Shown in pieces: positions 7,251-11,385 of a stretch of DNA of 64,000 bases; position 1 is the stretch's first letter, and each line of letters starts with the position of its first letter. The notes under the pieces are model-generated. The model worked only from the letters and a program-made list of their open reading frames with translations, did no database searches and was not told the DNA's origin. A program made the translations under genes and the position numbers. The DNA is from a virus (lineage: Duplodnaviria > Caudoviricetes): IMG/VR virus record IMGVR_UViG_3300033075_001021. One strand, given 5' to 3'.

Positions 7251-7462
7251 ATCTCTGTGTTTTTAGTTTATATTAATATACTAAGAGATGCGGGAAAAGT
7301 CAATAGAATTATGTGATTTTTTAAGCTCTTTTAACCCTCCGTTTTCCTTTATAATTCGATGTAAAAAGATTACTCTTTTTCTCCAATATGTTTTTTCTAG
7401 TATGTTTGATTTTTCTAACTTATATTTTGCCTTATGGTATTCTAATATGTACCGATTCATTA

Positions 7463-7684
7463 TTATATTTTTTTTATCTTTTCAATTGTACCGTCTTTCC
7501 AATGTTTTACAAGCCACCCATCTTTATCCATGTAAACCTTAGGTAACCCCTGTCCCCATGTATCGGCTTCTATTTGTTTTCTAAATCCCTCTTTAAATTC
7601 TGGAGAATTAAATAACTCCGACACCAAATCATTATCCTCAATCTCATCCAAAGATTTACAATCTTTTAATTTTTTCTTTTTCAT
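7463..7684 (-). CDS. Hypothetical protein
   Basis: 73 aa ORF. Confidence 0.55.
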   Translation of the reverse strand: MKKKKLKDCKSLDEIEDNDLVSELFNSPEFKEGFRKQIEADTWGQGLPKVYMDKDGWLVKHWKDGTIEKIKKI

Positions 7685-7688
7685 GTTT

Positions 7689-8063
7689 TTAATTTGAAAG
7701 TGGCGCTTTGATTGCTGGTTGTGATTGATAACATATCGTAATAATTAACCCTCTACTAACATTAAGTTCTCTTGCAACGGATGCCGACGTTAATTTTAAT
7801 TTACTTACTAACATTTTATCAACTATTAAATCAGAATTTTTTTCTCTATATCTATATAACATCCATTGTAATTCAAAAAATATAGAACCCCAATTAATGG
7901 TACCATCGTTGTTAATAGGTGTTCTTAATTTTAATGTTTTTCCAATAAACTCTTCGGAAATTCTTATGTCAGGGATTGCTTGTGAAAAATAAACAAAGTC
8001 ATCATTAATTTTCTTACAATAATCCCTATCCTCGGTTTCAGTAAATTGATTAATATCTATCAT
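7689..8063 (-). CDS. Hypothetical protein ending in a duplicate of the ThyA C-terminus
   Basis: Ends YQSQPAIKAPLSN versus ThyA YQSHPPIKAPLSN. Confidence 0.55.
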   Translation of the reverse strand: MIDINQFTETEDRDYCKKINDDFVYFSQAIPDIRISEEFIGKTLKLRTPINNDGTINWGSIFFELQWMLYRYREKNSDLIVDKMLVSKLKLTSASVARELNVSRGLIITICYQSQPAIKAPLSN

Positions 8064-8067
8064 TTAT

Positions 8068-8802
8068 TTAATTTGAAAGTGGCGCTTTAATTGGTGGGTG
8101 GGATTGATAGTTTTCTAATTGAAAATCAAACACGTTATAACAAGATATATCAGTTGGTAAAATATCTTTACATGGATTATGCAATATGTTTAATGTGGGT
8201 AACTCAAGAGATACTCTAGTAATCTGCTCCTTAGCCTGCTCAATATGATTTGAATACAAATGCACATCACCTAAACTACCAATTAGTTCATCTGGAATCA
8301 TATTCACTTCCTTAGCAATAATCTCTAACAACAAACCATAACTTGCTATATTGAAAGGTAAACCAAGAAATGTATCTACTGAGCGTTGGTTCCACATTAG
8401 AGAGATTGCTCTGGTTGGAATGTTATCATCATTTAATGATTTTTTCAATGAGTCCATTTCATCACTGTATCCTCCAAATGTAGAATAAAATTGTTCCCAA
8501 TCATTTCTAAAGTTCCCTCTCTTACAACGTATTTCATATCTTTCCCATAATTTCAATTCTCTTGTATAAACTTGAAATCCATAATGACAGGGTGGGAGAA
8601 CCATTTGGTCTATTTCACCTACATTCCAAGCATTAACCATTAACCTACGGCTATCTGGATTTGTTTTGAGTTCGGAGATTAAGTTTGCTATTTGGTCAAT
8701 ACCTTTATTACCGAACTCATTATTAAATTCTTTGTCTGTTTTCAATTTTTGTAAAAACTCTTCTTTTGTAAATGGGGTTCCGTCTTCGTGTTTATATTTC
8801 AT
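8068..8802 (-). CDS. thyA: Thymidylate synthase, C-terminal (catalytic) fragment
   Basis: IDQI, DSRRL, LPPCH, QRSVD, LGLPFN, GDVHLYSNH motifs. Confidence 0.93.
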   Translation of the reverse strand: MKYKHEDGTPFTKEEFLQKLKTDKEFNNEFGNKGIDQIANLISELKTNPDSRRLMVNAWNVGEIDQMVLPPCHYGFQVYTRELKLWERYEIRCKRGNFRNDWEQFYSTFGGYSDEMDSLKKSLNDDNIPTRAISLMWNQRSVDTFLGLPFNIASYGLLLEIIAKEVNMIPDELIGSLGDVHLYSNHIEQAKEQITRVSLELPTLNILHNPCKDILPTDISCYNVFDFQLENYQSHPPIKAPLSN

Positions 8803-9074
8803 AACTTTATTTTTCTTTCTAATGTTGCTGGTTTTCCAGAAATGATTAAGTTCTTTTTTATACCCTCAAAAATTGTAATATCATCATAAGGACTTATAAT
8901 ATATATTATTTCAGTTTTATCTTTATTTAATCCCACAGTTAAAGTCTGGTAAGGATGATATGAGTCATAAAATATATCAACTCCGTCAACTACACCTAAT
9001 TTAACAATACCTTCCCATTTCTTGTCGGGTTTAATAAATTCTGGCCCATTACAATCATACTTACTGTCTATCAT
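8799..9074 (-). CDS. Hypothetical protein inserted between the thyA halves
   Basis: 91 aa; its stop overlaps the thyA-C start (ATGA). Confidence 0.6.
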   Translation of the reverse strand: MIDSKYDCNGPEFIKPDKKWEGIVKLGVVDGVDIFYDSYHPYQTLTVGLNKDKTEIIYIISPYDDITIFEGIKKNLIISGKPATLERKIKL

Positions 9075-9078
9075 ATAC

Positions 9079-9780
9079 TCAATTTATATAAAACCAATTT
9101 TTATATTTTTCTTTATGTTTCTCTGACCGACCCCTACCTTGTAATATCCATCTAACAGAAAATTCATTCATATTAATAAAGTCCGCAGCCGCTTTAGCGG
9201 ATTCAAATTCAACACCATCTATTGAACATCTCTTGTTTGATGTTGAAGGTAGTTTTTTTCCTTCATATTTTTTTAACTTATCGGTGTTTGCTTTATTTGA
9301 TATATTTGAACCATTAAATCTACCTTTTAACCATCCCCCCTCAACAATTTTCGGGTCATTGGGGAATGCTCGTAGATTTGTTCCGTCAGGTTTATGATAC
9401 CATTTAGAACCCTTTATCTTTTCTCTACTAGCGTTTATCTGTGATTCCGATGGTTTGAACTTTTGCCATATTTCTAACATTTTATGTTTAGCATATTCAT
9501 ATACCCTTGAAGATGGTTTATATCTTTGTTGATTATCTGAATTACGGCACATTGACCAAAAGGCGTACCTTAAATCACTATTTTCTGGATACATTTCATG
9601 TAATAACCAATGAATTAAAAAATGTTCTCTCGCAGTTAAATCCACTAAATTATTTGGTTTATTAGTTCCATTCATACATTTTGGTATAATGTGATGTTTT
9701 TCAACATATCCTTCTAACTTTCTGTTTTTTGCTCTCTCAATAAGGTCGTCGTGTATTTTTTTGTAGTCCATAATTACCAT
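9079..9780 (-). CDS. HNH homing endonuclease
   Basis: EKHHIIPKCMNG...NLVDLTAREHFLIHWLL; C-terminal IDGVEFESAKAAA DNA-binding helix. Confidence 0.85.
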   Translation of the reverse strand: MVIMDYKKIHDDLIERAKNRKLEGYVEKHHIIPKCMNGTNKPNNLVDLTAREHFLIHWLLHEMYPENSDLRYAFWSMCRNSDNQQRYKPSSRVYEYAKHKMLEIWQKFKPSESQINASREKIKGSKWYHKPDGTNLRAFPNDPKIVEGGWLKGRFNGSNISNKANTDKLKKYEGKKLPSTSNKRCSIDGVEFESAKAAADFINMNEFSVRWILQGRGRSEKHKEKYKNWFYIN

Positions 9781-9819
9781 TGTTTACTATACATAAATAT
9801 GGTAATAAATGGAAAAATA

Positions 9820-10362
9820 CTACTTATCTTTAACTTTTTTCAAATAATCTTCATAAAGCTCATCATCAGATTTACCATTCCAATTACGCCAACCAGCCCC
9901 ATACACGGGGCCTAGTTCACCCCACTTCTTTGCAAACTCATCATCGGTTTTAATTTTATCAATAAATTCTTCCATTGTAAATTGACCATCTAGTTCAAAG
10001 GCAGATAAACCGTTTATTTCAGTTGGTTGAACTGATTTGATTTTAAAATCATGTGGGTTAGACGAAAACTGTGATTTGTTTAAATAATTCTTATAAGCAT
10101 CTCCATTCCAAATATGACATTCATCTTCAATTAGTGATTTTATATTGGTGTCACCACGAAGAAACCAAAGCAATTCAGCTACGATACCCTTGAAGTACAT
10201 TTTTTTGGTTGTAAGCAAAGGAAACCCATCTTGCATGTTATGACGAATTTGCCAACCAAAAATTGATTTGGTTCCAGTTCCAGTACGGTCTTTCTTACCG
10301 TCACCAAAACGAATAATAAAATCAAGTAATTCTCGATATTGTCTGTCTAAGTTATTTGCCAT
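9820..10362 (-). CDS. thyA: Thymidylate synthase, N-terminal fragment
   Basis: DRTGTGT, FPLLTTKK, ELLWFLRG, LGPVYG..WR.W motifs. Confidence 0.93.
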   Translation of the reverse strand: MANNLDRQYRELLDFIIRFGDGKKDRTGTGTKSIFGWQIRHNMQDGFPLLTTKKMYFKGIVAELLWFLRGDTNIKSLIEDECHIWNGDAYKNYLNKSQFSSNPHDFKIKSVQPTEINGLSAFELDGQFTMEEFIDKIKTDDEFAKKWGELGPVYGAGWRNWNGKSDDELYEDYLKKVKDK

Positions 10363-10513
10363 TTGAGTTAGTGTTTAAAATGTTGTTATATTCTTCAATT
10401 GTCAAGAATTGAGTATCTCCATTACTTACTTGAACAATTACGCCAGTTGGCTGTTCATCGCTTTCATCTTGAATCCAATTGATAAGCGTTATTTCAAAAT
10501 TATTCGTATTCAT
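10352..10513 (-). CDS. Small hypothetical protein (53 aa, not in ORF track)
   Basis: MNTNNFEITLINWIQDESDEQP...; fills the gap and overlaps both neighbours. Confidence 0.5.
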   Translation of the reverse strand: MNTNNFEITLINWIQDESDEQPTGVIVQVSNGDTQFLTIEEYNNILNTNSNGK

Positions 10514-10739
10514 AGTCAATGTTATTTTTGTATATCCACAAATGATTGTAAAGATTAAAAATTGTTAATTCAATTTGAAATGCTGGAGTATGTTCACCTA
10601 AAAACCTATCAAAATTAATCTTAAATTCAAAAAAGGTAAATCCGTCAGAAAGCTTTCGTATTGGGGCAAATAGTTGTATTTCCCAAAGTAATTTCTTTTT
10701 TTTCCATAAGGTACCAAACAATACAAGTCCGATATTCAT
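10500..10739 (-). CDS. Hypothetical protein
   Basis: 79 aa ORF. Confidence 0.55.
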   Translation of the reverse strand: MNIGLVLFGTLWKKKKLLWEIQLFAPIRKLSDGFTFFEFKINFDRFLGEHTPAFQIELTIFNLYNHLWIYKNNIDYEYE

Positions 10740-10816
10740 ATCTTAACAATTTTACAAGGTTTATTATACTTTTCACAAAGAGAAATGCTATGTTGTGTTC
10801 CACGTGAAATACCATT
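10736..10816 (-). pseudogene. Displaced 3' end of the SLOG/DUF2493-like gene
   Basis: NGISRGTQHSISLCEKYNKPCKIVKI* aligns ungapped with DQKSKGTLHSINLAKELKKPIRIITF*. Confidence 0.8.
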
Positions 10817-11385
10817 TATTTTATAATATTTTTATCTTTTAAATTAAGATATACTGAGCTAATCCAATGTATAAATTCATCGTGATGGTATTTGTTTTTG
10901 ATGAAATTACATTTTGAACAACATGGAACGACATTATCTAAATAATACCCTTTTTCGTTATCTAATCTGTCAATACCATTAAACTTATAAGGTCCATTTA
11001 ATTTTTGTTTTTTAAACTCAAAAATAGGTTCAGTTCCGCAATAATAACAATCGGATTCAAAGATTTTAATCATCTCCTCATCGGTTAGATTAAAACTGAT
11101 TCCTTTAAATTTTGCATTATGCCTATAATTGTAAATCAATGCGTTTCGATTAGCTATTCCAAATGCTTTTCTCCTTTTTGCCCCGTAATCAATTTCTTTT
11201 TTTATACAACCACAACTTTTAGTATGGTTATTAACTACTTTAGATGCTTCTACTATTACTATATTTCCACAATCACATTGACACTTATATTTTTTTCTTT
11301 TATAAGAAGCTTTTGGCATTACTTCAATAATCAATAATTTATTAAATTTTTTTCCGATTAATTCATCTTTCTTATTTTGTTCCAT
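10816..11385 (-). CDS. HNH-type homing endonuclease
   Basis: CQCDCGN...SCGC; CYYCG...GIDRLDN.KGY..DNVVPCCSKCN. Confidence 0.85.
   Translation of the reverse strand: MEQNKKDELIGKKFNKLLIIEVMPKASYKRKKYKCQCDCGNIVIVEASKVVNNHTKSCGCIKKEIDYGAKRRKAFGIANRNALIYNYRHNAKFKGISFNLTDEEMIKIFESDCYYCGTEPIFEFKKQKLNGPYKFNGIDRLDNEKGYYLDNVVPCCSKCNFIKNKYHHDEFIHWISSVYLNLKDKNIIK

Follow-up and report, generated by a model that had tools for sequence, protein, structure and literature searches.

We analyzed the thymidylate synthase gene (thyA) in a 64,000-nucleotide (nt) stretch of DNA from a virus of the Caudoviricetes (Duplodnaviria; IMG/VR record IMGVR_UViG_3300033075_001021), hereafter the window, and found it to consist of two minus-strand open reading frames (ORFs), with an HNH homing endonuclease gene and a 91-amino-acid (aa) ORF, ORF91, lying between them. 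Read along the minus strand, the thyA N-half (9820..10362; 180 aa) is followed by a free-standing, Mob-like HNH gene (9079..9780; 233 aa; phrog_655, E 2e-45), by ORF91 as a cargo ORF (8799..9074), and by the C-half (8068..8802; 244 aa). A preliminary description of this DNA had placed the break in ThyA between WRNW and GIDQI, assigned each half its own start and stop, and judged the spacers too short for a group I intron core, and the four consecutive ORFs bear this out: the spacers measure 39 nt and 4 nt, and at the third junction the ATG of the C-half overlaps the stop codon of ORF91 (ATGA), leaving no non-coding gap longer than 39 nt. Each ThyA protomer is thus encoded not as a single polypeptide but by two ORFs, the stop of the first and the start of the second being separated by 1017 nt, and the same two-ORF state was seen in all split relatives.

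Both halves belong to the ThyA family by their matches to the PF00303 profile, the N-half over profile positions 2-108 (E 2.6e-34) and the C-half over positions 159-265 (E 1.2e-52). The ThyA core of the N-half, through WRNW, spans residues 1-161 and includes a native small-domain insert (approximately residues 86-148; 9919..10107), after which 19 added residues, NGKSDDELYEDYLKKVKDK, form what we call the tail (9823..9879; stop codon at 9820..9822). The C-half begins with 34 residues, MKYKHEDGTPFTKEEFLQKLKTDKEFNNEFGNKG, that we call the head (residues 1-34; 8701..8802), a helix-turn-helix paralogous to helices 2 and 3 of the small domain, and continues with the motifs IDQI, PDSRR, PPCH, QRSVD, HLY and IKAPLSN, in that order. 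The catalytic and substrate-binding residues of ThyA are present in the window: the RTGTGT arginine, the ELLWF glutamate, two tryptophans, the DSRR arginine pair, the PCH cysteine, QRS-D, the asparagine, H-x-Y and the C-terminal IKAP. The catalytic and folate residues R26, E63, W158 and W161 were invariant in 93 N-halves, and the catalytic Cys, the Arg pair, QRS-D, the Asn and the His/Tyr were invariant or at least 90% conserved in 88 C-halves. The HNH protein, by its sequence and HNH catalytic region, is a Mob-type free-standing homing endonuclease; its identity to the homing endonucleases annotated in T4-like phages was 30-38% (983 records by tblastn, one of them annotated mobD), and it matched no Pfam family at E 0.01. 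With a free-standing endonuclease ORF, halves that have their own start and stop, and intact orthologues in relatives, this thyA has the layout of a true gene in pieces of the Aeh1 NrdA/MobE type.

Flavobacterium phage immuto, the closest cultured relative, encodes ThyA as one uninterrupted protein of 423 aa, in which an unrelated 19-aa loop occupies the break position, and among the 139 intact alleles that we fetched this loop varied from 3 to 44 residues. Because intact alleles carry unrelated and variable loops at that position, the tail and head are truly extra sequence. The near match between the summed halves (424 aa) and the immuto protein was rejected as chance, since the extra length of the immuto protein is a C-terminal insert. 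One intact allele, on the IMG/VR contig L030, carries an unusually long loop of 44 residues that starts WRNWNGK, like the start of the tail, and may be a remnant of in-frame cassette loss.

The head resembles the remainder of the small-domain insert, as had been proposed: 13 of 24 residues are identical (BLASTP E 1e-6), and each relative shows this match again. Common to the N-half insert and the head is a helix-turn-helix, EEFxxKxKTDxxFxxxxG, apparently that of the small-domain insert in Lactobacillus casei-type thymidylate synthases; unlike those enzymes, the window has a second copy, which lies 13 residues beyond the first and is shared out between the two chains. As the tail/head unit lies only about 13 residues past the resident small domain, the gene seems to carry a duplicated subdomain. 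The second copy split across two chains, suggested earlier for this locus, is an imported module and not a local duplication: the window head shares 24 of 30 and 19 of 30 residues with heads of other split types, compared to 14 of 30 with the small domain of its own gene. On this ground, and because the pair also turns up in a ThyA without a small domain, we rejected local tandem duplication as its origin.

Metagenomes yielded over 100 N-halves and over 100 C-halves of split relatives. Among the best 120 matches in each search, 119 of those to the N-half were N-halves ending with nearly the same tail, and approximately 105 of those to the C-half were separate C-halves starting with nearly the same head; outside the head and tail the matched proteins were only 55-70% identical to the query. 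In the N-half relatives the tail comes directly after a hypervariable stretch of the small domain. Tail and head occurred together in 16 of 16 distinct loci in which both ends could be read.

We evaluated selection by the Nei-Gojobori method in 14-15 distinct split loci, using the proportions of synonymous (pS) and nonsynonymous (pN) differences and the ratio of nonsynonymous to synonymous substitution (dN/dS). The head gave a pS of 0.67, a pN of 0.038 and a dN/dS of 0.023, compared to a dN/dS of 0.10-0.19 in the catalytic cores (pS 0.58-0.77) and 0.19 in helix 2/3 of the native small domain, of which the head is a paralogue. The head is thus the most constrained part of the gene at the protein level, and its conservation does not stem from a recent sweep, because its synonymous sites are saturated while the protein is nearly invariant. 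The tail had a pS of 0.40, a pN of 0.09 and a dN/dS of 0.17, with a 3' end that was invariant at the nucleotide level.

Split and intact states were interspersed on a FastTree phylogeny of the C-terminal core (60 split and 90 intact alleles), with 41 changes by parsimony, a count inflated by within-gene recombination, and at least 18 changes forced by well-supported branches. This interspersion indicates that the tail, endonuclease and head form a mobile unit. The right edge of the cassette is fixed by an intact protein (P0006) and a split C-half (P0004) that are 100% identical from GIDQIA to the end, the former having a 16-residue loop in place of the head. Copies 82-98% identical to the window HNH fill the same slot in other split loci, and at three loci (L005, L006 and L183) the HNH protein was only about 36% identical to that of the window with the tail and head unchanged. 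The sequences between the halves were unrelated among loci, ranged from 260 to 1725 nt, and had gathered unrelated small ORFs (ORF91, ORF78, ORF137 and ORF115). In a 56-aa protein (P0250) the head is fused to the HNH C-terminus, apparently through a rearrangement at a short NEF microhomology.

The split state outlives the endonuclease. At loci L083-L085 the HNH gene is gone and the halves lie just 260 nt apart, with an N-half terminus, YLKKVKEKYKNWYYIN, in which the tail runs straight into the final 9 residues of the HNH protein, the scar of a deletion; the sister locus L173 still has the HNH gene. Two further loci (L090 and L093) are also split without an HNH gene. At the loci lacking the endonuclease, both half ORFs remain open.

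A sensitive search with the head alone among 1.8 billion representatives, followed by context look-ups of the matching loci, revealed the same tail and head at other sites in thyA. In L187 and L192 (also P0258-P0263) the split lies within the native small domain: the N-half ends ...HIWDGDCYMAYLKEYEKYKK.. before the stop, and the C-half starts M..EDGTPFSKEQFIDKIKNDKEFSDKFG and continues with the normal LGPIYGKQWRNW...IDQI, so that what is the head elsewhere is here the native second part of the small domain. The L187 HNH protein was 56% identical to that of the window in the catalytic part, and L192 has a different endonuclease. These in-domain split alleles are the likely source of the tail/head pair. 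Locus L189 encodes an Escherichia coli-like ThyA without the small-domain insert that is split just before the catalytic Cys (PCH). Its N-half terminus (...SAWNVADLSEPDNRSDDELYQEYLKKIK / ...SDDELYQEYLKKIK before the stop) is followed by a GIY-YIG endonuclease gene and an 85-aa ORF, after which the protein restarts as MNKKYTHEDGTPFTKEEFIEKLKSDKEFNKEFG...MALRPCH; 24 of 30 head residues and 11 of 18 tail residues were identical to those of the window. Tail and head thus recur jointly at a different loop, with a different endonuclease family and in another lineage of ThyA. The split in L190 likewise falls just before the catalytic Cys, and L191 holds decayed fragments. The head searches found no head on non-ThyA proteins, and its pattern had no match in approximately 185,000 cellular genomes. 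Certain thyA genes from metagenomes are broken into at least three pieces (L190:1254-2180; P0260, P0265), with fragments that end NIPTKLITITYN(N/D)ETIESHE before the stop. These endings suggest that thyA has an additional split point ahead of the QRS motif, where the added tail is of another, strand-like kind.

Structure predictions for the two chains differed in quality. In the C-half model, with a mean predicted local distance difference test score (pLDDT) of 81.5, the head forms a short extended stretch and helices at residues 13-22 and 24-30 (pLDDT in the 70s) that lead into the IDQ helix. The N-half model was weaker (mean pLDDT 64) and contained the native small domain as a helix at residues 86-97, a hairpin, and helices at 130-139 and 141-147 (pLDDT 75-91), with the tail as a further predicted helix. 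A helix in the tail and a helix-turn-helix in the head would repeat the pattern of the native small domain across two chains. A complex prediction of N-half residues 151-180 with C-half residues 1-40, using separate alignments, scored 0.21 (mark, 0.32) and weighs neither for nor against binding.

We consider it probable that a small domain, once split, turned into a portable clasp of two chains that moves with homing endonucleases, and that the phage keeps its split ThyA working by this means. In this model an endonuclease would first have split the small domain in place, in its variable loop, as in the in-domain alleles that persist, and the enzyme would have survived this first split because the two pieces of this subdomain pack together as it folds. 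The block of helix 1, stop codon, endonuclease, start codon and helices 2/3 would then have been copied into other surface loops of thyA. In the window, the cassette comprises the tail codons and stop, the homing endonuclease gene (here the Mob-type HNH gene with ORF91), and a start with the head codons, and it takes the place of the variable surface loop that lies between WRxW, a strand, and the IDQ helix. The tail, as one helix, and the head, as a helix-turn-helix, would fold into a small helical module tethering the N- and C-fragments, and the tethered fragments would adopt the normal ThyA fold and dimer, so that the phage retains synthesis of deoxythymidine monophosphate. The association of tail and head, the activity of the enzyme and this order of events are inferred. 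Selection on the head, persistence of the split after endonuclease loss, and re-use of the pair at another site lend the clasp idea strong, if indirect, support. The chances seem even to us that the pair, which would derive from a split subdomain of the enzyme, is beyond this a self-sufficient heterodimerizing tag that accompanies endonucleases of different families and makes loop insertions in thyA harmless.

Several observations weigh against the clasp. The resemblance of the tail to small-domain helix 1, claimed in the preliminary description, held only marginally, as a permutation test gave p 0.006-0.02 against its own gene but was not significant against other alleles; the predicted tail helix (residues 166-179) had a pLDDT below 50; and tail and head are too invariant to yield a covariation signal. 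Given recombination among alleles, some of the purifying selection seen in the catalytic cores could be a legacy of intact ancestors. Furthermore, the codons TGG CGT AAT TGG, for WRNW, and GAA GAT TAT TTG AAA AAA GTT, in the tail, were invariant at the nucleotide level in 15 split loci (window 9823..9890), whereas 121 of 139 intact alleles had AGA for that Arg, preceded by AAG CAA. This conservation of the tail 3' end and the WRNW codons points, for at least that stretch, to a role at the DNA level, as an endonuclease target, in immunity or as an expression signal, which may be compatible with a protein role alongside it. The codons may represent a co-converted or recoded endonuclease target, or possibly an expression signal for the HNH gene instead, and the difference between split and intact alleles is consistent with a predicted site-specific cleavage of alleles that lack the endonuclease.

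This codon signature, together with the clear mobility of the cassette, would also fit tail and head being mere passengers in the co-conversion tract, or in the recognition or immunity region, of a recently spreading endonuclease, in a thyA that is dead or dispensable. We think this quite improbable, as the saturated synonymous sites and almost invariant protein of the head are the opposite of what recent spread would leave, and as same-site HNH genes have diverged to 36% identity with the tail and head kept, loci without an endonuclease keep both ORFs open, and the catalytic residues are conserved in both halves. If the extensions matter as protein, they might nonetheless not bind each other but cap the end of their own fragment, dock on the body of ThyA or on its resident small domain, or engage some third partner, for instance the endonuclease or a complex for nucleotide synthesis. 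Selection on the head shows that its protein sequence matters and not what it binds, and the resident small domain just upstream in the window offers a possible docking surface. The same pair is found, however, at another site in the L189 enzyme, which has no resident small domain, and the simplest partner common to both sites is the other member of the pair; moreover, tail and head co-occurred without exception in the loci readable at both ends, and in alleles split within the small domain the two together make up one folded subdomain. We therefore regard an arrangement of this kind as unlikely, although less so than mere passengers.

Least credible of all, in our view, is that a group I intron, a split intein or translational bypass restores a single ThyA chain. 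Group I introns carrying endonuclease ORFs are classically found in the thyA and td genes of phages, as in phage T4 td and Bacillus phage beta22 (PMC5746245), but an Rfam scan of 7400..10800 at E up to 10 found no intron, only chance matches at the level of small nucleolar RNAs or microRNAs, and the conserved P3-P9 ribozyme core was absent. The non-coding space is also small, both in the window and in loci with an HNH gene alone, where it amounts to approximately 50 nt (in L004, L007, L091 and L174 a gap of about 748 nt is filled by an HNH ORF of 693-702 nt). Gap content is unrelated between loci, and tail and head evolve as protein and not as RNA. We rejected a split intein and translational bypass on sequence hallmarks: the tail starts Asn-Gly with no Cys or Ser, the head ends Asn-Lys-Gly with no His-Asn, and the +1 residue is Ile.

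ORF91 is conserved in three split loci, with 100% in L086 and 93% in L181, and in one protein from the databases (P0102) it is continuous in frame with the C-half; at other split loci it is absent or swapped for unrelated ORFs. It matched no family and had no tblastn match elsewhere in the window, and on both counts we rejected the idea that it is a fragment of a capsid protein. At the 3' end of thyA lies a second, independent insertion (7688..8109, minus strand), in which 43-nt direct repeats of the thyA 3' end (8067..8109 and 7688..7730; 39 of 43 nt identical) surround ORF124 (7689..8063, minus strand). ORF124 ends in an older copy of the ThyA C-terminus and matched no family. Locus L086, which was 98.6-99.7% identical to the window on both sides, has a gene for a 279-aa GIY-YIG, I-TevI-like endonuclease in the slot of ORF124, and its thyA is diverged from the QRS motif onward, a typical co-conversion tract. 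The change at the thyA 3' end is a second, independent endonuclease-linked replacement in the same gene. Another HNH-type endonuclease ORF (10816..11385, minus strand; phrog_1035 and phrog_374) lies two genes upstream of thyA, in a region dense in selfish nucleases.

Related intact alleles occur in Flavobacterium, Chryseobacterium and Cellulophaga phages, and one split locus adjoins a gene whose product has a type IX secretion sorting domain of the Bacteroidota, suggesting that the host is likely a member of the Bacteroidota. No ThyX or further ThyA was found in four large contigs with the split gene, which are 40-68% complete.

How polypeptides split by homing endonucleases assemble is an open question in the T4 literature (PMC2988022), and this locus, with hundreds of related alleles, offers a concrete and testable answer, namely that the cassette brings its own assembly peptides. 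If this is true, non-covalent protein assembly would be a third route, besides self-splicing introns and inteins, by which an endonuclease insertion in coding sequence becomes harmless. Confirmation would reveal a new strategy for the coexistence of selfish endonucleases with essential host genes, would mean that a protein subdomain can turn into a mobile adaptor, and would provide a small natural peptide pair (approximately 19 and 34 residues) to try as a split-protein tag. In phage metagenomes, many of the thymidylate synthases annotated as 'truncated' are probably one half of an enzyme that works as two chains. We found no paper on a split thymidylate synthase of this kind in a literature search of incomplete coverage, which is not proof of novelty.

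Among known systems, the closest is the NrdA of Aeromonas phage Aeh1, split by the HNH endonuclease MobE into genes in pieces (Friedrich et al. 2007, summarized in PMC2988022). Both loci have a Mob-type free-standing HNH gene inside an essential nucleotide-metabolism gene, two separate polypeptides that are thought to reassemble, and intact orthologues in relatives. They differ in that the thyA cassette carries a conserved tail and head, where no conserved added terminal peptides have been described for the Aeh1 NrdA, and in that the thyA cassette is present in hundreds of alleles and recurs at several sites. The introns of T4 td and Bacillus phage thyA, with I-TevI and I-BmoI, share with the window the host gene, a homing endonuclease in a conserved part of it, and compensation of the damage; compensation there is by RNA self-splicing, whereas in the window, at a different insertion site and with no ribozyme, we propose protein assembly instead. 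The proposed association of the pair, finally, would resemble that of natural split inteins such as the cyanobacterial DnaE, in which a peptide pair derived from a mobile element associates at new termini and rescues the host protein. Unlike split inteins, the tail and head lack the catalytic hallmarks, are not expected to be ligated, and derive from a subdomain of the host enzyme itself.

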